Virus record (IMG/VR): IMGVR_UViG_3300046737_000169
Coordinates: 1-64,000 of that record
Strand: one strand, 5' to 3'
DNA from: a virus
DNA: 64,000 bases
Below are positions 2,312 to 23,772 of the stretch, in pieces (position 1 is the first letter of the stretch; each line of letters starts with the position of its first letter). The notes under the pieces are model-generated. The model did no database searches. It worked only from the letters and a program-made list of their open reading frames with translations, and was not told where the DNA came from. The position numbers were made by a program, and so were the translations under genes.

Positions 2312-5300
2312 ATGCCGGGTGATGTTTATTACGTAGATAGCGTCGAACGGACTCTCGAGGGCAAGCTCGGCGAGCGCTTCTCGGTCCTCGACGTGTCGAC
2401 CACGGCGGGCAAGGGCACGCTCGACGAAGCGCCGGTATTCCTGAAGGCGTACGACTCCAAGATCACCAAGGGCGGCGGCTCGATCCATGTGCCGGGCGCG
2501 GTGGGAGCCGGCTACCGCCTCGACCAACCGCTGAACCTCAACGGCACCGTGGCGATCGAGTTTGTGGGCGATGGCCGCGCGTCGAAGATTTTTCGCGGCG
2601 CGAACATGCCGGCGGGCAAGGGCGTGCTCGATTTCACCGGCGCCAAGCACCTCACCTTCCGCAAGCTCCTCTTCGACGGCAACGTCACCACCTCGACCAA
2701 GCTCGATTACTCCGCTTTCGGCAATGACCCGGCGCATCCGTCGCTCAGCACCAATTCGATGTTCTGGCTGCGCGGCGCCGAGGACATTACGTTCATCGAT
2801 TGCGACTTTGAACACACCGGCGGCTACTCCCATTACCTCGACGCGCGCAACGCCCTGGTGAAAGGCGTCCGGTTCATCAACTGCCGGTGGACGAACAACC
2901 GCCCGCACATGCTCGGCACGGCCGGCGACCTGGACTACGGGAGTCCCACCGGGGGCATCCTCTATCAGAACCAGGGCACCGGATCGAGCCGCGTAGAGGA
3001 TCTGACGGTGCGCGGCTGCAAGTTCGCGCGCTCGACCGGCCGCGGCGTCTTCGGCCACGGCTACAGCTTCGACACTCCCCATCAGCGCATCCATGTCGAC
3101 AACAATTCATTCGTGGACATGGGGCTCAATGGAATCGTCTTCGGCAACACGAGCGGCGGAAGCGCGATCGGCAACAGCTTCCGGCGGATCGGTTACATCA
3201 CGATGGACGACACCGGGGCGAGCGCGCCCAAGTGGCACCCAGGCAACCGGCCGAGCGGCATCCGGACATTTGGAGTCGTCAAGCTGCTCCCGATCTCATC
3301 GAACGACTTTGTCAGTGTCAACGGCGCGGCGATCGAAGGCGACGGCTACTGCTACGGCGTGATCTCCGGCAATACGATCCGCGTTCCGCACTCGGGCGAG
3401 CCAGAGTACGCCGAGGATACGATCGGCTCGGCCGGCCCAGGCGGCGCCGGGAACTGGATGCAGGGCGTCGTCACCTCGAACACGGCGAACCGCGAGGGCG
3501 GCCAGGCGGTCACGATCTCTGGGAACAGCTTCGACAACGTGGGCGGCTGGAATATCGGCCTCTACGCGGCGAGGAAGTGTCAGGCAATCGGCAACCTGCT
3601 CATCGTTCCGAGCGCGCCCAAGCAAGTGCCGATCATAATCGGCGGCCAGGGCGCCGGGGCGAATCAGATGGCCACCGAAAATCTGGTCACCGAGAACACC
3701 ATTCACTACGCGCCCGCGACAAGTTCGCCGGCCGTGTTTGAAGATCCGACCGACCGGGCCTTCGTTCCCACCGATAGAAACAACGTCATCAAGAACTACA
3801 TCGTGGGCGCGAACGCCTTCGAGTTCCGGCGCGATCCCAACTCGGTCTCGAGCGCGGCGCTGTTCTTCACGACCTCGAGTGTCGCGACCTCGCAAAGCCG
3901 GCATGGGTTGCAGCGCGAGGGCATAGGCAAGGACTCCGCACTCCGGTTCTACGCGCAGGATGGCGACCCATTCGGCTGGCTGCACATGCAGCTTCAGATG
4001 TACCGAGACGCGGGTGCGCGCGGCCCGCTCCTCAACGTGTCCGAGACCGGTCCAGGCCCCCCGGAGATGATCAACGAGGGCGGCGTGATCACCACCGGGC
4101 CGTACACTACGGCCGTATTCGGCAACGCCATGATCACCGGCAAGCTGATGGGCACCGGGTTCCTGGCCTTGAGTGAGAGCTCGTACTGGGATGTCGAAGC
4201 GAACATGCTCCTGGACGACTGGGCCCTGCTGCGCTGGGACAACATAAACAACAAGTGGCAACAGTCGATCTCGACGGCTGACGGCGCGCGGGTCTGGAGC
4301 GACTTCGGCGCAGGCGGCACCGCGGGCATCCCCGGCGGCTTGAACACGCACGTTCAGTTCAACGACAACGGCGCTTTCGGCGGCGTGCAAGAGTTCACTT
4401 ACGACAAGGGCTCAAAACAGTTGACCCTTCACAGCTATGCCTACAACGGCATCACCATGCCGAATGGCGGGTTCCTGGGCGAAAACGTAAACGTCAAAAA
4501 ATATGCCGCGTTCTCCTTTGTGAACGAGGTATTGACTCCGGCGGGCGCCGACACCTTTAACGAAAAGCTGATGCTCTTCGCCGAGGGACCGGGCGGCACA
4601 CTCCGGCTCGTGCGCGGCCTGGGAGACGACAGTTACGTCGACTGGGATCTCCAATGCCGTGGCATTTGGGTTAGCGGCATGAGTCCAAACAAGGACGACA
4701 TTCTAGCCGAGGACGGCAGCGTCAGGGCGCGTTACCTCACCACCAGGGAATCGCTGATCTTCAAGCAACAGCCAGCTTCCCCACTGCCAGAGCTCTCCGC
4801 TTCGGGCGAGACACGTCTCGCCGCCAACGTGGATGGCCAGATGTACATCTCGACCGATGGGCAAAACTGGGGACCGTTCGGCCTGGGCACACCGGCAGGC
4901 GGGCACCGCCAGATCCAGTACAACAACAATGGCGCGTTCGGGGCAGATGCCTCCCTGATGTACCTGCCGGGGCAGATCTTGGACGTGGGCGGCGGGGTTA
5001 GGATGGACAACCTCTGGTTCTACCAATATCCAGGGACCGAGGCCCCGATAGTATCGGCGCGGGGACAGGTGAAGATCTACGCCAATACTGATGGGCTGAT
5101 GTACATCTCGACGGACGGCCAACCCTACGGGCCTTTCAGCCTCACTCCGGCCGGCTCGGACGGCGAGGTCCAGTTCAACAACAAGGGAGCTTTCGGCGCT
5201 TCCGAGTTCTTCTACTGGGACAATCGCCCCGACCACCTTACTCTGTCGATAACTTGCGTGGCGGGACATCCGGCGATCTCGGTGTCAGGCGGCTGGGTGC

Positions 5301-13131: not shown

Positions 13132-16100
13132 ATGGCTGATAACCCATTTGCCAAATATGGCGGTGTCCTGGTAGCGGACGGCGAGGACGAGAACCCGTTT
13201 GCCAAGTACGGCGGCGTCAAGGTTGTAGGCCCGCCCAGGCCACATGTCGAGCCTACGCCAACCGGGCCTGCTCCTGCGCCCTGGATCACCGCCGATAAGG
13301 TTCCAGGCGCCGAGCTTACCGGGCTCCCCGGCGTACAGAAAGTCCCGGCTCCATACGATCTCGGCGGTCCTGGCCGAGGTCCAGGCGCCGCGCCGCCGAT
13401 CAGCCCGCTCCAGCAGCCGACGATGCGCGCTGCGACACCGCGCTCGGTCCCTGATTACCTGTCCACAGAAGGCATCACCGGCCTGCCGTACCCTGGCTCC
13501 GGCGGGGTGGTCCCGCCCGAGCCGTACGCTCCTCCTCTGCCCAAGGACGCCGGCCTCGGCGAGCGCGTCTGGAGAGGCGTAACCGACGAAGGTTGGACGC
13601 AAGTTCAAGACTCGATCGCTTCTGGAACCCAGGTGGTGGGGCGGAACATCGATCGAGCCTTTGGTCCTGGGATGATCCGCAACGCGGGCGATAGGCTCGC
13701 CCAGTACGGCGAGGAGTTGGAGTCTGGGCGCGAGTACACGCCGCCCGCCGTAAACCTGGAAGACTGGCTCGCCAAACCCGATCGGTCTGTCGGCGACCTC
13801 GCGACGATGGTCATCGAGGGCGGCGCGAGAACCCTGCCCAACATGCTGGCAACGGTTGGAGCGGGCATGTTGGTTCCCGGCGGCGGCGCCGTACTCTCCT
13901 ACCTGATGAACTCCGGGGAGATCTTCGATAGCCAGGTTAAGGAGGGAATCCACCCTGAGCAGGCGGCGAAAAACGCGGCGGTCTGGGGCGTCCCGGCCAC
14001 GATGCTGGACTACTTCGTTCCAGGGGACATCATCAAGGCTATCAAGGCGAATCCCAAGCTGCCAGCGGAGCTTAAGAAGACCCTCTACAAGCGCGTAGTG
14101 GATTTCGCCAAGGGCACCGGCACCGAGATGTTCACCGAGGGCGCCCAGAACGTCAACCAGGATCTTGCCATGTCGCAGGCGACCGGGAAGCCGATGGACT
14201 GGCGGAAGACGGGCGTAGGGGCCGCCGAGGCCGCGCTCACGGCGGCCGGCCCTGGCGCTGTCGGCCATGTGATGGAGAGCGTCGGCGAGCGCACGCCCGC
14301 CCTGGACGACGTATTGGGCGGCGGCGAACTGGCCGACTACATGCGGAAACGGCAGGAGGCCGGTTTCCAGCCTCTGGAGCAGCCGCAGCCGGAGGACGAC
14401 GGCGGAACGCCTCCTCCTCCAGGAGCGCCTCCCGGTGCTCCCCCAGGAGCGCCTCCTGGGGCACCTCCCGGCGCGCCACCGCCAGGCGCAGGCCCGTTCC
14501 CGCCTCTCCATACGCAACCGCCGCCAACCGAGCCTGGAACGATACCGACGACCGAGCCTGGGGCTCCCGACCAGACACTGCCTCCCGAGACGACGCCCGG
14601 CACCGGCGAGGCGCCTCCCCCGCCCCCTCCGGTACTGCAGGGCGAAGAGCTCTACCAGGCCGCGACCGCCCACGTTGCCGACATCGCCGGGATCGAAGCG
14701 CCCGAGCTTGCCGCGGCGCTGGGTGTTACGCCGAAAGATGCGCAGGCGGTCCTGGAGCGCATGGTGCAGGAGGGCGCGTTCACTCCCAAGGTTCTCAAGA
14801 ACGGCGGCATCTCTTACGTCAATCTACGGCTGAAGCAGGAGCGCGGCGGCATATCGCCGGTCACCTCGCCGATCCAGAAGGGCCAGGCCGAACCGCCGCC
14901 GCCTCCAGGACCAGGAGTGCAGCAGGAGCCGCCGCCGCTGCCGACGCAGCCACCAGCGCCACCGCAGGAAGACGTTTCCCGTGGAACAGAAGAAGACGTT
15001 CCGCCGCCCGAGGTAAGAACCGAGGAGCCGAAGCAGCCCGTCCCAGACGAGGCGGCGGCCAAGCGTCAGGCGTTCATCCGGAACCGCTACGCCAACAAGC
15101 CGGAGAGTTGGTATGGAACCCTCGAAGGCGAAGGCCCCCGGCCTGAGTGGAACGACTTTGTGGAGCGCTTCGCCCGCAGCGATTACGGCGCCGACCTCCA
15201 GGAGGAAGCCAAGCGGGCCATCCAGGAGTTCCGCGGGCTCGAGCCGCCGTCCGATTCAATTCAGCAAGGAAAGGAGCCAGGAGAACAAGGAACCGCACCA
15301 AAGCCGCCAGCATTGGAGCGGGCGCCGCCGCCTGCTCCAGCGGCTCCCGAGGAGAAGGAGCCCATCCCGTCGAGCCCAGAGGGCCGGCCTGTTCCGCCGG
15401 AGCATCCCAACGCAAAGCGGGAAAAGGTCTTCACGACGGCAGGCCGCGAAGTGCCTATCCGCTACGAGATCCGCGAGGCAGACGACCTCGTCAACTCGTT
15501 CGAGCCTAACTATCCGCAGGAGTATCAGCCGCGCGACACCGAGCGGATCGGCACCGAGCAGCGGGTCAAGCAGCGCCAGAGCGACATGAGGCCGGAGCTA
15601 TTCGCCGAGTCTCCGCTCGCCTCCGATGGCGCCCCGATCGTCCTGCCGGACGGCACGGTCATCACCAGGAACCACGGGTCAGAAGCGCTCAAGCGGAACT
15701 ACCGCGAAGGCTCGCCCAAGACCGCCGAGTACAAGCAGTGGCTCGCAGACAACGCGGCCCGCTTTAACTATTCACCCGAGCAGATTGCCGGGATGCAGCA
15801 GCCCATCCTGGTCCGCGTGATGGAGGGGAATGTCCCGGTCAGTGAGGTGATCGAGTTTGCGGGCGAAGCCAACGCGCCCAGCGTAGCCAAAATGAGCGAG
15901 GCCGAAATCGCCCAGCACATGGCTAAGAGGATGACGGGCGCCGTGATGGAAGCGTTTCATCCGACCGAGGACGGCAAGCCCAACATCGAGTTCGTACGGG
16001 AACTGATCAAGGGCCTCACCGTCGAGGACCAGGCTACCTTCATCGACCGCAACGGCAAGCTCTCGCAGGAGGGCGCCAAGATCGTCCGGAACGTCATCTT

Positions 16101-19100
16101 CGCCAAGGCATACCCTGACATGCGCGCGATCGAGCGCATGGCCGAGACCGAGGACGCCAGCCTCCTCAACGTGACCAAGGGGATGCTCTTCTCGGCACCC
16201 AAGGTTGCCATCTTCCAGGATCTGGTTGACCGCGGCGAGCGCTTCGATCTCGGCATTGGCCAGGACATCATCGACGTACTCAACATCCTCGATCAGATCT
16301 CGCGCGAGGGCAGCAGCATTCCGGAATGGAAAGCCCAGCAGAGCATGTTCGGGCGCGATCCGTTCCTGATCCGGCTCCTCGACATCGTCTCGGAGAACAC
16401 CAGATCGGCCAGGAGAATCTCCGATGTCTTCATAGCCTACGCGGAAGTAGCCGATGCGGCCGGCTCTCCCAAGCAGGAGACGATGTTCGGCCCGCCGGAG
16501 ATTCCCGGCAAGTTGGAGATACTGGAGACTGCGCATGAACGGGCAAAAGAGCAATGGGCGGCCAAGCCTAAACGGCGAGACCCGGCGACCGGCAAACCCA
16601 TCGAAGAAGGCGGGCCCGAGGAACAGGCGAAACCCGCAAGTGATGGAGTGGCTAAAGGACCGGATGAAGACGTACGACCCGAAGTACTTCGGGAAGGACC
16701 AGCCAAACCAGGAGCCCCCGGCGCCCAGCAGCCTGGAGGAGTAGAAAAAGGAAAAGGCGTACGCCGCCGGGATCGGCGGCGAGCTATAGACGCCGATGGC
16801 AAGTGGCAGGATGACACCCTCGCCGATATCCCCGGATTGACCGCGCAGGCAACGTTCAAAGAGCCAGGGGTAAGCGGCGTCGTCTGGGTGAACTACGACG
16901 GGATGCGCGTAGTGGAAGCCGCGCTGAACGAGCCGCCGCTGAACGGCATCGCACTTGACGACGTGGGCGTGGTCGACCTCATGTCGGCGCTGGAAGCGCG
17001 CCTCGCCGAAGACGGCCTGTACGAGGAAGAGCGTGCCAAGCTCCAGGAGTTTCACGACCTACTGAGCAAGCACCGCGAGAAGGTAGGGCCCGGCGCCGGT
17101 GTCGAGATCGTCATGGCCGATCCCACGGTGAATGCAGACTTCATTGGGACGGCCCGCGAAGAGAAGCTGCACGCCGCCCAGCGTCAGGCCAAGCTCTCGG
17201 ACGAGACCATCGAAGACCTGATGCTTGAGCCGGAGTTCCACGAGGCATGGGGATGGCTTGAGGATCACGGCTATCCTGATATTGACGCCAAGGGCGCATT
17301 TGAAGAGATCACCGCCAAGGTGCTCGCCGGCCAGGCAATCGGGCTCACCGAGGCCCAACGCATCAAGGTTGCCAAAGCCTACCGCAATGCGCTGATCGCG
17401 GCGCATGGCGCCGAGGCTATCGTTTTATTCCGATACATCAAGTCAGGTGAAGTGAAGGAGACGTTCCGTGGCAGAGAAGCAAAAGAGGAAGGTGCTGGAC
17501 GCGCCGCCGGAGTTCAGTCGGAAGGCGGTGTCGAACTTCAACGCGGCCCAACTGGCGGCCGCGAGGGCGAAGGAGAAGGGGGAGGACGAGGACGCGGCGT
17601 TCGAGAAGTCGCTGAAAGCGAGTTGGGCGGAAAGCGCGGGGAGCAAACCAAAATCGAATTAGAGGAGCAGCCCGACGACCGGGCGATCCTCCAGGGCGAG
17701 CGTCTGACCGCAGGCTTCAACGCTCCGCTCACGCCGGAAGAGAAGCGCGCCAAGCTCAAGCCCGCCAAGGTCGAGCAGACGAGTATGTTCGGCGGCGAGG
17801 AAGAGCCCGCCGAGCGCCAGGGCCGGCTGTTCGCCAAGCGCCAGCATGAGTTCGAGGCGCCGGGGCGCCTGGTCACCTCGAAGACAGCCGAGGAGTTCGG
17901 CTCCACCGACATCCTGATGCCCGGCGAGGGCTTCCGTTTCCCCGAGGCGGTGAAGCGGGCCGCCTCGCTGATCAGGAAGTACCCAGGCTTCCGCGGCAAA
18001 GGGCTCGCCAATCCCCAGGCGGTCATCGACGACTTCGTCAAGCAGATCCGCGAGAACCTGGTCTGGCTCCACGACAAGTACCGGGAGCAGCACGGCGATC
18101 TGATCAAGCGCGCCAAGCTCTGGTACGACGGCGGGCGCAAGATCGCCGAAGGCTTCGCCAAGGAGGCCGGCGTCAAGCCTCACCAGTCCGCCGCGGTCAT
18201 CGCCGTCCTCTCGCCGAAAAAAGACTGGTTCATGAACGTGGACCTGGCGCGGCGCATTCATCAGTTCATGGGCATCGCCGACACCGTGAAGTGGTCCGAC
18301 AAGATGGACGCCGGGTATCGGGCCATGCAGAAATCCAAGGCCAGGAGCGATGCCAGTTCCATCAAGAAGGCCGCTGCGAAAGGGAAGGTCTTCACTCCCA
18401 GCAAGACACTCCCTAACGCCTACCGGCGGATTCGCGGGAAGGCTTTCAGCGAGATCACCAACGCGCAGGACCGGGCCTACTATCTGCGCATGTGGGACGA
18501 GGGCCACAATAGCCGGGACTTCAATGTCCTGACGCCCGAGGGCGAGTCGCGCGGCGTGGCGCGCAACAAGAAGGACACCGCCAACTCGAAGGTGGTCTGG
18601 GCCGGGTACGACGCGATCCGGAAGGCCATGTCGGTTCTCGAGGACGGTTCGGTGGAGAACATCAGCAAGCGCCTGGGCAACCGGCACAAGGTGCGCTCGT
18701 TCTACAACAACATCCTCGATCCCAACTCGAAGAACCTCCACGTCACCATCGACACCCATGCGGTGTCGGCCGGGCTGCTGCGGCCGCTTGGCGAGAGCGA
18801 CCCGGAGGTCAAGCACAACCTGGGCGCGCTCTCGGTGGTAACCGGCGAGGCTCCGACCTACGGCCTGTTCGCCGAAGGCACCAGGGACGCAGCCAAGGAC
18901 CGCGATCTGATCGCCCGCGAGATGCAGTCGATTACCTGGGAGGCGGTGCGCGGCCTGTTTTCCGGCGGTTTCAAGAACGACGCCAACAGAAAAACGCTTG
19001 CGGCGCTCTGGCGGGACGTTGCGCAAGGTAAAATAACGGCTGATGAAGCGAGAGAGCAAATCTTCAAGCTCGCGGGAGGCATTGATCGACCAGCTTGGGC

Positions 19101-22100
19101 AGATCGACTCCCCGATTTTGGAGGACATGATCGAGGAGGGCGCGCCGCTGACGCGCGCGGAGTACCTGGCGAGGGCGTACCCGGAGCAAGACCCGGAGGA
19201 GCCGATGGACTCCGAGCTAGAGGCCGAGATGCCGGCGCTGTTCGTACACCCGGACCTAAGGAAAGATCTCGGCCTGGACGACAGCGAAGCGTAAGAGGCG
19301 AGCCGGTCCCCACCGGCAAGACGGTCGAGGCCCAGACCCACGCCGCCACCGGCGGCAGATTCCCAGACATCATCCGCTTCTCCGATGACCTGAAGAGGGC
19401 GATGGATGGCCTCGTCTTCCACAGCGAAAGCAAAGCGGACCGGAAGGCCGGCAAGCTCGCGGCTGGTTTTAAAACCGGGACGTGGTACATCAACCGGCGC
19501 GGGCTGAGCCTGCTCGCCAAATGGACAGGCTCCGACATGGTCGCGGGAAGCTCGTTCCCGGCCAGTACGGTCCCCCTTCTCATCAAGGTAATCGACGAGG
19601 ATATTGCGTGGATACAGGCCCGCAAGCCGCTCACCCCGCAGGGCCTCGCGGAGATAACCAGGCTCCGCGACCGGCTGGAAGCGTGGGAGAAACTCCCGAA
19701 GGCGACGCCGGACGAGTCGGTGAACTTCTCCTTCTTTGAGCAGGGCGAAAAACGGCACCCTGCCATGCGCGCGACGATCTCCGAGGAGGCGATACATGGC
19801 TTCCAGCGCCTGGCGGCACTCAAGGACGCAACCATCGACGCCCTGATGGATACCGACCTGTTCAAGCGGGCCAAGCAGACGCTCCAGAGGAACGGTTTGT
19901 ACGCCGGCAAAAACAACCGTTCGGTCCTCATGGAAATCACCGCGAAGATCCTGGCGGCCGATCCGGATTACGCCCCCCATATTCCCGAGTTGTTCCGCCT
20001 GCATATCGTCAAAGCCTACCGGGATGCGATCGTTGCCGAGCACGGCGAGGACGGGATCGTTGTTTTCCGGTACATCAAAAAAGGCAAGGAGAAGGATGTC
20101 TTCCAGGGGCGGATGCAACCGCCCATGCCCACCAGACCCGGTGCGCCTACGACCGGGCCGCGGGCACCGCCGCCGCCGCCACGGCCGTCTCCAACCGCTC
20201 AGCCGGTCTGGACGCCCACGGGCAGGGCGACGCAGGCGCCCTTCGACTTCACCAAGAAAGATCCTTACGCGGGCACTACGCCCTCGCCCACGGCCAAGCC
20301 GAGTACTTCGCCCACGCGCAAGCCGGTGCAGCTTCCGCTGTTCCAGCAACTGAAGAAGGCTGGCCTGTTCGCCAGGATTGTCGAAGCGGGCAGGCGGGCG
20401 GACGAGCGGCTCCGCAAGGCCGGCATCTACTCCGGCGCCACGCTGAGCGCCAACCGGTTCCTCGATCCGAAAGTCATCCGCGACATGGCGATCTCGATCG
20501 CCGGCTCGGTTGCTCAGGGCGTCATCGATGCGAGGAACTTCACCTCGTCGATCACCGATAAGTTCGGCAGCGGCGCCCGGCGCGTAGCTCGTCAGGTGTA
20601 CCGCCGCGCGCAGGGGCAGATGAGGCACGCCGCCTCGACCGGGACGCTGAACGCACGCACGCTCGGACCCAATGCCGTGCAGGCCGCCTCGATCGGCGTG
20701 CCGCCTCCCACGACGGCGGTCGCCACCACCACGCCGCAGCAGCAGGCCGCGGCCGCCCTGGATCAGCGCGAGAAGGAAATCTGGGAGCGGATGATGCCGG
20801 CCACCAAGACCGGCGAAGACAGCCTCCTTGAGAAGGGCAGGAAAGGCTGGCAGAGCTTCAAAGCCTTCTTCGACCGGCAGTACTTCCACCTGGCTCACGG
20901 CGCCAGGTTCGCCGAGCTCCGGCAGCGCCTCAACTTCGTGGCCAAGAGCCAGGGCACGTCCCAGCACAAAGCGGCCCAGGCCATCATCGATCAACTCGAG
21001 AAGCTCGACGAGAAGGAGTACATCCAGTTTTTGAAGGTGGTGGTCTACAACGACATGTGGGCGCGCGTCATGCAGCAGACCGCCGAGGGCACGCCGGTGC
21101 TCGACAAGGATCTGTGGTGGGGCATCAAGGACAAGCACGAGCTAGCCAATGTGCGGGCGAAGGTGCGCGCCGATGCCAGGGCCAATCCCAAGGTGACCGC
21201 CGCGCTCGATATGCGCCAGCAGATGTGGCCCAACATTCGCAAGGAATACATCGCCGCCATGAAGAAGGCCGGCGTCGACGTATCGAAGAGCATCAAGCGC
21301 AAAGACTACTTCCGCCATCGCGTCATGAAGCACCAGGATGCCAAGATGGCGGGCAAGGGCGGCGGCTCGCGCTTCAAGCTGCCTACCGCGCGCGGCTGGC
21401 TGAAGAAGGCCCAGGTCAACATCCACGACTACTCGCTCGACTACATCCGCTCGGAGTTTGAAGTCCTCAACGAGATGATGTACGACACCGCACGGGCCAA
21501 ATTTATCGGCTGGCTGAAGGACGAGAGCGGACACAACATCGACAAGCAACTCATGCGCCAGGCGGCGGCGCACAACAAGGCCGTCATCATGCCGACCTTC
21601 GCGCGGATGGCGCGCTACTACAACCGCAAGAACCGCGGCCGCGGCGTCTCGCTGATGACCGCCGAGTCGATGTACCAGAAGATGATGCGGCTCAAGCCGC
21701 GCGATCCAAGCTGGCGTAAGCGCCTCACCATGCGCCTGGCCGGCGCCGAGTATGTGGGGAGCCTGGAGAAGGCGCTCAATACGTTCGCCAAGGACACCCA
21801 CGACATCTACCGGGCCAACGATAAGGACCACTTCTACCTGGCGGCCACGATCCCTGACGCGCTGGCGCGGGCGATCGCCGCCAACGGCACCGGCCAGGTG
21901 CTCGACACCCAACTGAAGAAGATCCTGGCCAAGGGCCAGCGCCAGGGGCAGATGGTGCTCCCCAAGGAAGTGGTCAAGACCCTGCAGGAGTTCATGCAGG
22001 GGCCGACGAGCGATGTCGGCAAATTCGTCGACTCCGTTTCCAGGTGGCCTCTCAACAAGTGGAAGCAACTCAAACTGATTCATCCGGCAGGCGTCGTCAA

Positions 22101-23772
22101 GTACAACCTGCGCAACCTGTCGGGCGATCTGGAGCGCGTGCTGGCCGTCAATCCGCACGCCGTTGCGCATGTCGGCAAGTCCATGAGCGACATCTACGAT
22201 TTCGTGAAGACCGGCAAGATGCCGAGTCCCGAGTTCCAGGAATGGTGGGAACGCGGAGGCATGGACTCCAACCTCCAGGAGGCCGAGGCCGGCGACATCG
22301 ACCGCCTCGCCAAGCTGAAACGCAAGCTGGTCGATCCCGATGTCGGTGCGGCGAAGAAGACGCTGCGCTTGGGCGTGAGGGGATGGAACGCTCTGTGGAG
22401 AGGGCTCCGCACCGGCACCAACATGCGGGAAGGCATCCTGCGCTATGCCACTTTCCTCGAGTACCAGCAGCAGATCGCGGCGAGCACCTCTGGGCGCCCG
22501 AAGAACTTTGGCGCCTCGCGCCGCGAAGAAGTGATGGCGCTCAGGAGCCGCAACGATCGCGCCTACAAACTGTCGAACGACCTGATGCTCGCCTACGACG
22601 AGGTGGGCGTGGCCGGCCAGGAACTCCGGAAAAGGTGGATTCCCTTCTGGAGCTTCCAGGAGCAGAACGCGCGGGCCTACAAGCGGATCATGGTCAACGC
22701 CTGGAAGGACGGCCGGACCTCCGCGTTGATCGGACGAGCCATCGTGGGGAAGACCGCGCGGGTAGGCGCCTACACGATGATGAAGCTCGCCTCGACCTCG
22801 ATGCGGCTGCTGATGCTCAAGACGCTCACCGAGCTCTGGAACAACTACGCCTACGACGACGAGGAAGAGGATCTGCCGGAGAGCGTGCGCAAGTCGACCC
22901 ATATCATCCTGGGCCGAGACTCGAACGGCAAGGTGCGAGTGTTCTCGCGCCTGGGCACCATCGACGATCTGCTTGAGTGGGGCGGCCTGGATGCGGCGCC
23001 GTTCTATGCGCGCGAGTACATGAACGGGCGCATGGACTTCGCCGATCTGAAGGACCAGATGATCGGCCATCTCCTGCCCAGGCTGCGCGGCGGCCTTCCG
23101 GTTCCCAAGGCGGCCTTCAACAAGGTCTGGCAGAGCATCACTCCGTACATCAAAACGACGGCGGAACTGGGCTATGGCAAGACCTCCTATCCGGACTTCT
23201 TCAAACAGCGAGAGATTCGGGACACCGGCGAGTACATCGCCCGCGAGTTGAACCTGCTTGCCCCCTACAAAGGGTTGATCAAAAAGCCGCAGCCGTCGTT
23301 CTGGACGATGGACAAACTGTCCGAGTTCATGATCTACAAGTACGATCCGAACGAGACGCAGTACAACTCGTTCCGCTACGACAAGGTGGCCAAGTGGGCG
23401 GTGGAGAACGGGCACGACACCTCGGGCGGCGGCATGTCGCTGAAGAAGTCGGCCGAGGCGCTCTACGATATCCGCATGGCGATCCGCTACGACGACCAGA
23501 GCGCGCTGGCCGCCGGGATACAAGCCTACAAGGATGCGGACGGCACCAAGCAGAACCTGAAGAAATCAATCCAGCGCCTGCATCCGCTGGGCTCGCTCAC
23601 CAACAAGAAGCTGAAGAAGGAGTTCGAGGACTCCCTCACCGCCCAGGAAAAACGGCAACTCGAAAAGGCTGTAGCATTCTGGGAAGAGCAATTTCATTCC
23701 AAGGAAACCGAAGTGATGGATGTCGCGCAGTCCGAAGGTCTGCCGGCCAAGAAGAAGAAGGGGAAGAAATAA
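13132..23772 (+). CDS. Large polyvalent virion-ejected protein (DdrB-like ParB domain, two zincin-like domains, DUF7178/HhH-like domain, LPD38-like C-terminus)
   Basis: 3546 aa; NYPQEYQPRD..DGAPIV..DGTVITRNH (ddrB-ParB-like); two EExxH..EITAK.LA domains; IAVLSP..W..N / KVRSFYNNI / VTIDTHA / MQSITW; WIPFWSF..LPE..R C-terminal domain. Confidence 0.85.
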   Translation: MADNPFAKYGGVLVADGEDENPFAKYGGVKVVGPPRPHVEPTPTGPAPAPWITADKVPGAELTGLPGVQKVPAPYDLGGPGRGPGAAPPISPLQQPTMRAATPRSVPDYLSTEGITGLPYPGSGGVVPPEPYAPPLPKDAGLGERVWRGVTDEGWTQVQDSIASGTQVVGRNIDRAFGPGMIRNAGDRLAQYGEELESGREYTPPAVNLEDWLAKPDRSVGDLATMVIEGGARTLPNMLATVGAGMLVPGGGAVLSYLMNSGEIFDSQVKEGIHPEQAAKNAAVWGVPATMLDYFVPGDIIKAIKANPKLPAELKKTLYKRVVDFAKGTGTEMFTEGAQNVNQDLAMSQATGKPMDWRKTGVGAAEAALTAAGPGAVGHVMESVGERTPALDDVLGGGELADYMRKRQEAGFQPLEQPQPEDDGGTPPPPGAPPGAPPGAPPGAPPGAPPPGAGPFPPLHTQPPPTEPGTIPTTEPGAPDQTLPPETTPGTGEAPPPPPPVLQGEELYQAATAHVADIAGIEAPELAAALGVTPKDAQAVLERMVQEGAFTPKVLKNGGISYVNLRLKQERGGISPVTSPIQKGQAEPPPPPGPGVQQEPPPLPTQPPAPPQEDVSRGTEEDVPPPEVRTEEPKQPVPDEAAAKRQAFIRNRYANKPESWYGTLEGEGPRPEWNDFVERFARSDYGADLQEEAKRAIQEFRGLEPPSDSIQQGKEPGEQGTAPKPPALERAPPPAPAAPEEKEPIPSSPEGRPVPPEHPNAKREKVFTTAGREVPIRYEIREADDLVNSFEPNYPQEYQPRDTERIGTEQRVKQRQSDMRPELFAESPLASDGAPIVLPDGTVITRNHGSEALKRNYREGSPKTAEYKQWLADNAARFNYSPEQIAGMQQPILVRVMEGNVPVSEVIEFAGEANAPSVAKMSEAEIAQHMAKRMTGAVMEAFHPTEDGKPNIEFVRELIKGLTVEDQATFIDRNGKLSQEGAKIVRNVIFAKAYPDMRAIERMAETEDASLLNVTKGMLFSAPKVAIFQDLVDRGERFDLGIGQDIIDVLNILDQISREGSSIPEWKAQQSMFGRDPFLIRLLDIVSENTRSARRISDVFIAYAEVADAAGSPKQETMFGPPEIPGKLEILETAHERAKEQWAAKPKRRDPATGKPIEEGGPEEQAKPASDGVAKGPDEDVRPEVLREGPAKPGAPGAQQPGGVEKGKGVRRRDRRRAIDADGKWQDDTLADIPGLTAQATFKEPGVSGVVWVNYDGMRVVEAALNEPPLNGIALDDVGVVDLMSALEARLAEDGLYEEERAKLQEFHDLLSKHREKVGPGAGVEIVMADPTVNADFIGTAREEKLHAAQRQAKLSDETIEDLMLEPEFHEAWGWLEDHGYPDIDAKGAFEEITAKVLAGQAIGLTEAQRIKVAKAYRNALIAAHGAEAIVLFRYIKSGEVKETFRGREAKEEGAGRAAGVQSEGGVELQRGPTGGREGEGEGGGRGRGVREVAESELGGKRGEQTKIELEEQPDDRAILQGERLTAGFNAPLTPEEKRAKLKPAKVEQTSMFGGEEEPAERQGRLFAKRQHEFEAPGRLVTSKTAEEFGSTDILMPGEGFRFPEAVKRAASLIRKYPGFRGKGLANPQAVIDDFVKQIRENLVWLHDKYREQHGDLIKRAKLWYDGGRKIAEGFAKEAGVKPHQSAAVIAVLSPKKDWFMNVDLARRIHQFMGIADTVKWSDKMDAGYRAMQKSKARSDASSIKKAAAKGKVFTPSKTLPNAYRRIRGKAFSEITNAQDRAYYLRMWDEGHNSRDFNVLTPEGESRGVARNKKDTANSKVVWAGYDAIRKAMSVLEDGSVENISKRLGNRHKVRSFYNNILDPNSKNLHVTIDTHAVSAGLLRPLGESDPEVKHNLGALSVVTGEAPTYGLFAEGTRDAAKDRDLIAREMQSITWEAVRGLFSGGFKNDANRKTLAALWRDVAQGKITADEAREQIFKLAGGIDRPAWADRLPDFGGHDRGGRAADARGVPGEGVPGARPGGADGLRARGRDAGAVRTPGPKERSRPGRQRSVRGEPVPTGKTVEAQTHAATGGRFPDIIRFSDDLKRAMDGLVFHSESKADRKAGKLAAGFKTGTWYINRRGLSLLAKWTGSDMVAGSSFPASTVPLLIKVIDEDIAWIQARKPLTPQGLAEITRLRDRLEAWEKLPKATPDESVNFSFFEQGEKRHPAMRATISEEAIHGFQRLAALKDATIDALMDTDLFKRAKQTLQRNGLYAGKNNRSVLMEITAKILAADPDYAPHIPELFRLHIVKAYRDAIVAEHGEDGIVVFRYIKKGKEKDVFQGRMQPPMPTRPGAPTTGPRAPPPPPRPSPTAQPVWTPTGRATQAPFDFTKKDPYAGTTPSPTAKPSTSPTRKPVQLPLFQQLKKAGLFARIVEAGRRADERLRKAGIYSGATLSANRFLDPKVIRDMAISIAGSVAQGVIDARNFTSSITDKFGSGARRVARQVYRRAQGQMRHAASTGTLNARTLGPNAVQAASIGVPPPTTAVATTTPQQQAAAALDQREKEIWERMMPATKTGEDSLLEKGRKGWQSFKAFFDRQYFHLAHGARFAELRQRLNFVAKSQGTSQHKAAQAIIDQLEKLDEKEYIQFLKVVVYNDMWARVMQQTAEGTPVLDKDLWWGIKDKHELANVRAKVRADARANPKVTAALDMRQQMWPNIRKEYIAAMKKAGVDVSKSIKRKDYFRHRVMKHQDAKMAGKGGGSRFKLPTARGWLKKAQVNIHDYSLDYIRSEFEVLNEMMYDTARAKFIGWLKDESGHNIDKQLMRQAAAHNKAVIMPTFARMARYYNRKNRGRGVSLMTAESMYQKMMRLKPRDPSWRKRLTMRLAGAEYVGSLEKALNTFAKDTHDIYRANDKDHFYLAATIPDALARAIAANGTGQVLDTQLKKILAKGQRQGQMVLPKEVVKTLQEFMQGPTSDVGKFVDSVSRWPLNKWKQLKLIHPAGVVKYNLRNLSGDLERVLAVNPHAVAHVGKSMSDIYDFVKTGKMPSPEFQEWWERGGMDSNLQEAEAGDIDRLAKLKRKLVDPDVGAAKKTLRLGVRGWNALWRGLRTGTNMREGILRYATFLEYQQQIAASTSGRPKNFGASRREEVMALRSRNDRAYKLSNDLMLAYDEVGVAGQELRKRWIPFWSFQEQNARAYKRIMVNAWKDGRTSALIGRAIVGKTARVGAYTMMKLASTSMRLLMLKTLTELWNNYAYDDEEEDLPESVRKSTHIILGRDSNGKVRVFSRLGTIDDLLEWGGLDAAPFYAREYMNGRMDFADLKDQMIGHLLPRLRGGLPVPKAAFNKVWQSITPYIKTTAELGYGKTSYPDFFKQREIRDTGEYIARELNLLAPYKGLIKKPQPSFWTMDKLSEFMIYKYDPNETQYNSFRYDKVAKWAVENGHDTSGGGMSLKKSAEALYDIRMAIRYDDQSALAAGIQAYKDADGTKQNLKKSIQRLHPLGSLTNKKLKKEFEDSLTAQEKRQLEKAVAFWEEQFHSKETEVMDVAQSEGLPAKKKKGKK
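14973..14988. promoter_or_regulatory. parS-like centromere site embedded in CDS
   Basis: CGTTTCCCGTGGAACA vs consensus TGTTTCACGTGAAACA; encodes the tell-tale DVSRGT peptide in a Pro-rich linker. Confidence 0.55.
16535..16744 (+). CDS. Nested +1-frame gene 1 (69 aa) after the ddrB-ParB domain
   Basis: GGAG 7 nt before ATG; host frame loses GC3 bias here; product ends VMEWLKDRMKTYDPKYFGKDQP.. Confidence 0.45.
   Translation: MNGQKSNGRPSLNGETRRPANPSKKAGPRNRRNPQVMEWLKDRMKTYDPKYFGKDQPNQEPPAPSSLEE
17468..17662 (+). CDS. Nested +1-frame gene 2 (64 aa) after the first zincin-like domain
   Basis: AAGGAG 7 nt before GTG; helical protein-like product; host frame becomes G/R/E low-complexity. Confidence 0.6.
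   Translation: MAEKQKRKVLDAPPEFSRKAVSNFNAAQLAAARAKEKGEDEDAAFEKSLKASWAESAGSKPKSN
19043..19294 (+). CDS. Nested +1-frame gene 3 (83 aa, acidic) after the DUF7178-like domain
   Basis: TAAAAT -10 box 8 nt upstream; product PILEDMIEEGAPLTRAEYLARAYPEQDPEEPMDSELEAEMP; host frame is an R/G shadow. Confidence 0.7.
   Translation: MKRESKSSSSREALIDQLGQIDSPILEDMIEEGAPLTRAEYLARAYPEQDPEEPMDSELEAEMPALFVHPDLRKDLGLDDSEA

Follow-up and report, generated by a model that had tools for sequence, protein, structure and literature searches.

The stretch of DNA analysed here comprises 64,000 nucleotides of a viral record (positions 1 to 64,000 of IMG/VR record IMGVR_UViG_3300046737_000169; hereafter the window), with a GC content of ~63%. 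It contains a giant gene of the polyvalent type, inside which lie three small open reading frames (ORFs), P0002, P0003 and P0004, all in the +1 frame relative to the giant gene and none extending beyond it (Table 1). A first-pass annotation had placed the three ORFs at these positions, which we confirm, and had read them as antidotes carried in the linkers behind three enzymatic domains of the giant protein. Judged by comparison with related loci, P0003 and P0004 are real, conserved and separately started genes overprinted on linkers, and P0004 is predicted to bind a conserved pocket of the domain that precedes it.

The giant gene and its nested frames

The main-frame product is of the polyvalent-protein kind, joining several conflict-type domains in one polypeptide that is encoded among late/virion genes, with tail-fibre genes downstream. 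Its database relatives are likewise polyvalent proteins, 2000–5700 residues long and carrying many polyvalent-type Pfam domains. The DdrB-like ParB region is 28–30% identical to DdrB of phage P1 and relatives (tblastn) and 51–55% identical to metagenomic giant proteins. A blastn search of 16000–19800 against GenBank phages gave zero matches, and the ParB and EExxH regions, used as single-sequence queries, retrieved no loci from IMG/VR or metagenomes; alignment queries were needed to reach their relatives.

Two of the three domains that the first-pass annotation saw ahead of the nested ORFs, ddrB-ParB and DUF7178, are recognized by Pfam. The third, named zincin-like, is the EExxH domain, which occurs in two copies. 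Its model shows three strands and a helix bearing the E-E-x-x-H motif, followed by a later invariant glutamate, and this topology matches the one described for MPTase domains by Iyer et al. (PMC5512222). A fold search with the model (VIA, PDB) recovered no zincin, the best match having a Z of 5.6, and the domain has no Pfam match; the name zincin-like thus refers to the motif and the predicted topology.

The presence of the nested ORFs is, by itself, at chance level, as the giant gene holds ten +1 and five +2 ORFs of at least 60 residues and its antisense ORFs reach 1159 residues. One explanation is that no second protein is made: in GC-rich DNA, the open +1 frames could have arisen by chance, or they could be left over from compensated frameshifts or from assembly errors in linkers that tolerate them. 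Besides the base composition and the many long alternative-frame ORFs, this explanation can draw on the fact that low-complexity linkers skew codon statistics. Codon choice can be assessed apart from that effect. Over the nested spans, GC content at the third codon position (GC3) of the main frame falls from 0.80 to 0.36–0.52, a loss of bias that had been noticed in the first pass, and main position 1, which corresponds to the third codon position in +1, climbs to 0.83–0.92. Because linkers rich in Gly, Arg, Ala and Pro lift GC at position 1 by composition alone, we scored only the choice among synonymous codons, which removes amino-acid composition from the comparison. Across the 3546 codons, the main frame drops more than 2 standard deviations below the gene mean (0.38, standard deviation 0.30) in exactly three regions, 16507–16821, 17392–17676 and 18952–19341, where it scores −0.25 to −0.67, and in each of them the +1 frame scores 0.3–0.4, as is typical of the gene. 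The view that the GC3 dip is mere linker composition can be rejected, since the composition-free test keeps the dip and Pro-rich linkers elsewhere stay within 2 standard deviations. The codon signal and the conservation described below exceed chance; the presence of ORFs does not.

Table 1. Features of the giant gene, with positions in the window
Feature	Position	Strand	Remarks
Giant polyvalent virion-module gene, main frame	13132–23772	+	single open frame, 3546 aa; Pfam ddrB-ParB and DUF7178 (DUF7178 match at aa 1648–1714)
DdrB-like ParB region	15442–16552	+	Pfam match at aa 771–897, E 1.5e-25; similarity to relatives extends to the ...ERAKEQW motif
GGAG	16524–16527	+	7 nt ahead of ATG 16535; same GGAG-N7-ATG at the same main-frame motif in L096
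P0002, nested +1 ORF	16535–16744	+	69 aa, basic, isoelectric point (pI) 10.1; strongest codon signal in last ~35 codons
EExxH domain, copy 1	16870–17544	+	profile match; invariant E103, E104, H107 ... E152; model pLDDT (predicted local distance difference test) 86
AAGGAG	17455–17460	+	7 nt ahead of GTG 17468; AAGGAGG-N7-GTG in L001, L002, L081, L086/87, L088
P0003, nested +1 gene	17468–17662	+	64 aa, basic, pI 9.4
DUF7178 domain	17809–19101	+	predicted fold like helix-hairpin-helix (HhH) DNA glycosylases; Pfam and profile; model pLDDT 86
TAAAAT	19029–19034	+	within GGT AAA ATA (main-frame G-K-I); 8 nt ahead of ATG 19043
P0004, nested +1 gene	19043–19294	+	83 aa, pI 4.1; homologues in 76/80 loci
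EExxH domain, copy 2	19471–20136	+	profile match; followed by neither a P0003-like ORF nor a coding switch in the linker
Conserved C-terminal ~1000 aa of giant protein	20800–23769	+	60% identity to L001

The +1 frame recurs elsewhere. Among the giant or long ORFs of high-GC loci (n = 20 scanned), convincing nested coding signal occurs in +1 only and never in +2, which fits the genetic code. The main frame reads the third base of one nested codon together with the first two bases of the next and, as all stop codons begin with T, it is closed only where a T-ending nested codon precedes AA, AG or GA. The same offset accounts for the G/R/E low complexity of the linkers, because acidic +1 codons (GAR, GAY) are read one base earlier as NGA and GNN (Arg, Gly, Glu).

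Two observations from these scans stand apart from the three ORFs. Codon usage marks the +1 frame of the Pro-rich PPGAPPGAPP linker at 14347–14556 as coding, yet the +1 translation is Arg/Pro junk; over this repeat (~14350–14550) the +1 score is raised and the main frame falls less far. The score is probably artefactual, reflecting composition, and calls for care in similar scans. In another locus (L010, 9206–9799), the +1 frame of a 3508-residue ORF contains a 197-residue ORF with strong coding signal, across which the main frame is open. Its predicted product (...NLRWATATENERNKRNN...) reads like an HNH-type homing endonuclease, and it has no Pfam match at E 0.01.

Conservation and start signals of the small genes

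A DUF7178 domain at ~40% identity is encoded by 80 viral loci, in which P0004 was searched for by profile. A homologue is present in 76 of the 80, always directly behind the domain. Together with the window this gives 77 cases from loci of GC 0.37–0.69, and in 76 of them the small ORF is in the +1 frame. It is wholly nested in 68 of the 77. In the other nine, eight of which are in +1, the main ORF ends after a conserved ...GGIxxPEWE(R) motif, at most ~20 codons into the small ORF; in L075 the overlap is only 22 nt, and in L065 the small gene lies past the main stop in the +2 frame. Thus the small gene, for which the first-pass annotation had suggested comparing nested and separate copies, is found largely or wholly outside the main ORF in four loci (L065, L075, L017 and L062). 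The family further includes 370 stand-alone database members, mostly of 62–65 residues, whose source-given names are all 'hypothetical'; no Pfam or PHROG family matched the nested small proteins.

Both P0004 and P0003 begin ~20–25 codons before the end of the upstream domain, so the earlier description of the ORFs as lying directly behind their domains needs correcting for these two. This short overlap has a signature of its own in the P0004 family. In the first 20 codons, nested position 2 (equal to main position 3) is the most variable, at 0.42, and in the core that follows (...LPLTRENYLGLAYPEG...) variability is 0.535 at nested position 3, 0.377 at position 1 and 0.275 at position 2. By this measure, selection acts on the main frame in the first 20 codons and on the +1 frame in the core, with the switch at the end of the domain. 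Since codon-position variability shows the nested frame to be constrained, the main-frame tail over P0004 is not conserved as a protein. To gauge its openness, the synonymous codons of the small gene were redrawn from each locus's own usage, which gave a probability of 0.0005–0.2 in most loci that the main frame is open given the small protein. It is observed open in 68 of the 77, and on the domain tree these loci fall into six or more deep lineages. As far as sequence comparison can tell, the main frame across P0004 is kept open against expectation without being conserved as protein.

P0003 shows a comparable pattern. Homologues of 50–62% identity occur in the +1 frame of ~7 further contigs (L001, L002, L081, L084/85, L086/87 and L088), all nested in giant ORFs and with a GTG start behind AAGGAGG-N7. 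The first of these, L001, retains this start although its upstream main-frame sequence is unrelated. In the window and in all the others the ORF lies behind an EExxH domain, and between L084/85 and the window the host domain is 26% identical and the small protein 51%. Variability at the three nested positions is 0.359/0.291/0.367 in the overlap, position 2 being the least variable, against 0.433/0.349/0.536 in the upstream domain. The main frame is open across P0003 in every locus, although the probability of an open frame is 0.03–0.18 per locus. These values indicate purifying selection on the +1 frame of the P0003 family, the main frame being merely kept open.

Returning to the explanation by chance or error, the +1 products are conserved in dozens of loci at GC contents as low as 0.37 and show nested-frame purifying selection, and stand-alone homologues exist. 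The sequence is identical in an independent run (X2), and a sequencing error or compensated frameshift is rejected. For P0003 and P0004, the distribution of homologues, nested-frame selection and conserved start signals refute chance ORFs, which could still hold for P0002 alone; as an account of the whole arrangement, this explanation is highly improbable. Population data show a single difference across 272 nt at P0004, compared with ~1.5% elsewhere, though these are small numbers.

The start signals of the P0004 family are more frequent than main-frame coding would produce. An ATG in the open +1 leader is present in 57 of 59 unique loci where 31.6 are expected from main-frame synonymous shuffles, and a Shine-Dalgarno (SD)-like motif accompanies that ATG in 34 loci where 12.2 are expected. 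The ATG derives from a main-frame D-E read as GAT GAA. In the window, the initiation motifs ahead of the three ORFs are as first described. The TAAAAT ahead of P0004 is built of three codons that are rare in the gene, with a joint probability of 0.0009 under the gene's own usage, and GGTAAAAT is also present in L001 and L081. Its reading in the first-pass annotation as a −10 promoter box fared less well, as a sigma-70-type scan of 16300–19500 called no promoter; the element could be −10-like or an A/U-rich ribosome landing site.

Alternatively, the +1 segments could be reached by programmed +1 ribosomal frameshifting and serve as alternative C-termini of truncated isoforms of the giant protein. 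In favour of this, the relative frame is constantly +1, the small ORF opens within the last part of the domain ahead of it, and the main frame is uninterrupted before and after; frameshifting would be a compact route to nested products. Against it, the start codons and SD-like motifs are conserved and more frequent than expected, the ATG of many loci directly follows a +1 stop, and gene callers record stand-alone forms of 62–65 residues. The +2 copy past the main stop in L065 and the 22-nt overlap in L075 likewise do not fit, and a search for in-frame fusions of the P0004 core among longer proteins found none, which is weak evidence. The constancy of the +1 frame has another source, namely that a shared overlap is locked by descent. 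Programmed frameshifting is rejected as the leading explanation on the start signals, the separate copies and the stand-alone forms, and we regard it as quite improbable.

P0002 differs from the other two in the kind of evidence available. Its internal synonymous-codon signal equals that of P0003 and P0004. Only an alignment query brought up relatives of the ParB region. One of them, 55% identical in the domain (L096), shows coding signal in a +1 ORF that is placed alike and has the same start arrangement, and another at 30% identity (L100) also has a +1 ORF with coding signal. Two further nested +1 ORFs (L081, 2979–3128, and L086, 2717–2887), both having an SD-like motif, share 43% identity and are weakly similar to P0002; they sit before the first EExxH domain, behind an unassigned domain, and could be members of a third family of small genes, one with P0002 among its relatives. 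The case for P0002 is one of positional analogy and not of established homology, and it is probably a real nested gene.

Two features of the sequence adjoin this ORF. Past its TAG, the +1 frame runs on for 14 more codons, nearly all G/C-ending, to the next stop (16742–16787), which may reflect smoothing of the signal or a once-longer ORF. A mosaic junction (16745–16747) also falls exactly at the P0002 stop codon, with the ParB module on one side and the first EExxH domain on the other: from 16747 on, the window is matched at ~98% by contigs from freshwater sediment (two other studies, runs X3 and X5), which are unlike it before that point.

Profile maps of the loci show a recurring order of EExxH domain, P0003 (+1), DUF7178, P0004 (+1) and EExxH domain. 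In one class of loci, the DUF7178 gene is only ~680 residues long (L029, L052, L046, L077 and ~40 others), and its main frame ends exactly 38 nt past the nested stop, where its TGA or TAA overlaps the ATG of a following ~950-residue gene with GGAG ahead (for example, L029, 11258–11296). Where the main ORF stops early, it is the stop of the small gene that overlaps the next ATG instead. On these comparisons the P0004 family is shown to travel with DUF7178 and the P0003 family with the EExxH domain, which supports the idea of a module in which domain and small partner move together. The module proposed in the first pass is supported for two of the three ORFs, which are conserved and tied to a domain, and P0002 is the one without a demonstrated homologue.

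The giant gene of Rhodobacteraceae phage LS06-2018-MD07 (L092, OP947163.1), which carries the annotation 'methyltransferase', has a weak P0004-like +1 ORF (3998–4243, E 4e-5) directly behind DUF7178 that is unannotated. Gp40 of Roseobacter phage CRP-738 has no P0004-like match.

The DUF7178 fold and a predicted complex with P0004

When the DUF7178 model was compared exhaustively with VIA-align, 17 of the top 18 matches were HhH-GPD-type glycosylases or the related queuine-salvage enzyme. The best is the Tm1821 8-oxoguanine glycosylase (Z 9.2, root-mean-square deviation 3.9, 189 residues aligned), and further matches include QNG1, MagIII, AGOG, OGG1, Mag1, AlkA, EndoIII, MutY and ROS1. At this modest Z, the domain is predicted to have the HhH-GPD fold, with two helical lobes and an HhH hairpin. 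Foldseek with the same model gave no match, and an Atlas search with DUF7178 returned only DUF7178 clusters. The invariant sequence of the family is concentrated in LGxxHKVRNFYNN ... VTIDTHA, comprising G276, H279, K280, R282 ... D301, T302 and H303.

The first-pass annotation had suggested modelling each nested product with its upstream domain. For P0004 we modelled the complex with DUF7178, each partner being given as its own alignment, alongside three controls. The pair scores 0.82 and the best control 0.01. Of 80 solved complexes, 58 attain this mark, as do 2 of 110 mismatched pairs, rates that are rough here since the alignments were our own. At least 71% of contacts are common to the runs, and the partner has a pLDDT of at least 70. 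On the domain side, the modelled interface includes the invariant residues P122, G276, D301 and T302 and adjoins the invariant H279 and K280, as residues 273–278 and 281 are in contact; on the P0004 side it consists of the conserved AYPE motif and an acidic run. The model supports binding of P0004 to the conserved pocket of DUF7178, and a small acidic protein lying in a DNA-binding groove would fit both the interface and the isoelectric point. The earlier description of the nested products as helical or acidic suits P0004 in this respect and not P0002 and P0003, which are basic.

The small genes could also be real without being inhibitors. They could encode assembly or packaging chaperones, regulators of processing, obligate subunits or independent anti-defence proteins, and conservation and predicted binding serve such roles equally well. 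Helper roles are plausible in view of the processing and packaging that proteins of the P1 DdrB type undergo (PMC5512222). Two of the small proteins, P0002 and P0003, are basic, unlike the acidic P0004, and there is no sign that the neighbouring domains need restraint. On the other side, the model has P0004 meeting its partner at the invariant HhH/Asp pocket and not on a peripheral surface, and the P0004 family is strongly acidic, with a median pI of 4.4; both fit occlusion of the groove better than they fit a chaperone. We consider non-inhibitory roles plausible but rather unlikely as the explanation of the set.

Proposed roles and relation to known systems

Our preferred interpretation, to which we assign a probability of roughly 0.6, is that linkers of the giant gene hold separate +1 genes with their own internal starts, that these encode partners of the adjoining domains, and that P0004 is a guard or inhibitor. 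Ribosomes would initiate on each small gene internally, at a start codon of its own, within the mRNA that it shares with the giant gene. The main ORF probably grew over the small gene, and giant versions would have arisen by fusion to downstream genes with the small gene retained; read-through would preserve translational coupling and could have allowed the giant fusions. Inhibition is our best guess for the role of P0004, which would bind the HhH/Asp pocket and, up to deployment of the protein, most likely act there as a stoichiometric guard that imitates DNA. Analogous partner roles may be filled by P0003 and, probably, by P0002.

Several points weigh against this interpretation. The best Z is modest for a helical protein, and at the sequence level the DUF7178 domain has no glycosylase match by Pfam or PDB profile, with no HhH-GPD appearing even at E 10; its invariant motifs have a possible likeness to the HhH and VDTH catalytic motifs of endonuclease III. 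Binding of P0004 is supported by a model score from own alignments. The P0004 copy of the window is without an SD-like motif, and the loci are mutually related, so locus counts are not counts of independent events. The pairing of P0003 with EExxH domains is strong and not absolute, because copy 2 of the domain has no such ORF behind it and the P0003-like gene of L001 has no EExxH domain upstream; the first-pass expectation that homologues always follow the same domain is borne out for P0004 and falls short here. For P0002, tblastn found no homologue in the loci or in GenBank phages, and its +1 codon-usage peak (log-likelihood ratio 0.45) is barely above the 0.40 of the Pro-rich repeat at 14404–14470, itself probably a false positive.

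A broader rule may be entertained tentatively, although we would not bet on it: each polyvalent enzyme module may have its guard protein in the +1 frame of the next linker, with enzyme and guard recombining as one unit. Such guards would silence DNA-damaging or proteolytic domains in the producing cell and the capsid and free them on ejection. Because the frame one base behind a T-avoiding gene seldom meets stops, neighbouring genes could merge to encode giant injected proteins and still keep their small partners.

Giant polyvalent genes of phages are annotated as single proteins, and standard annotation misses a nested layout. If linkers routinely hide conserved partner genes, phage proteomes are under-counted, and a widespread family of 'hypothetical' small proteins (at least 370 database clusters) would gain a context and a testable target. 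The layout is also a clean natural case of long-term dual coding, in which selection switches frame within ~20 codons and the outer frame is selected only for openness. Should the acidic P0004 prove to block a glycosylase-like domain of the HhH type, glycosylases would have a regulator of a new kind, and there would be a lead to what virion-carried domains do to DNA.

Phages are known to encode DNA-mimicking glycosylase inhibitors, Ugi and p56, which target the family-1 uracil-DNA glycosylase of the host, and in barnase–barstar and toxin–immunity pairs a small cognate gene directly follows the toxin domain. P0004 resembles these systems as a small, very acidic protein encoded by the gene of a nucleic-acid enzyme, modelled in the substrate groove and forming a cassette with its cognate domain: P0004-like genes stand behind DUF7178 in 76 of 80 loci, and P0003-like genes behind EExxH in most loci, with L001 as the exception. 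Unlike Ugi and p56, its candidate target would be the phage's own HhH-type domain, and the partner is overprinted rather than placed downstream.

With the polyvalent proteins, including DdrB and DarB of P1 (Iyer et al. 2017, PMC5512222), the giant protein shares its giant multi-domain build, the DdrB-like ParB domain and the neighbourhood of virion genes. MPTase-type domains are interspersed between other domains in that family (PMC5512222). The embedded genes and the HhH-glycosylase-like domain lie outside the family as described there, the text of which has zero occurrences of 'overlapping', 'frameshift' and 'glycosylase' (PMC5512222). We found no published description of this layout in the literature, and GenBank phage records with a DUF7178 gene have no nested gene annotated.

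The closest known arrangement is that of the Rz/Rz1 spanin genes of phage lambda, where, as here, a larger phage gene contains the whole of a small gene in its +1 frame, and the small gene has its own start. Embedding, nested-frame selection (for P0003 and P0004) and own start signals are all found here in the sequence evidence. The embedded product of Rz/Rz1 works with the product of the surrounding gene, an interaction that is here predicted by the model. Rz and Rz1 are lysis membrane proteins without sequence relation to the present genes, whose host is a giant multi-enzyme virion gene; and, unlike in Rz/Rz1, several embedded genes lie here in the linkers, each tied to a different domain.

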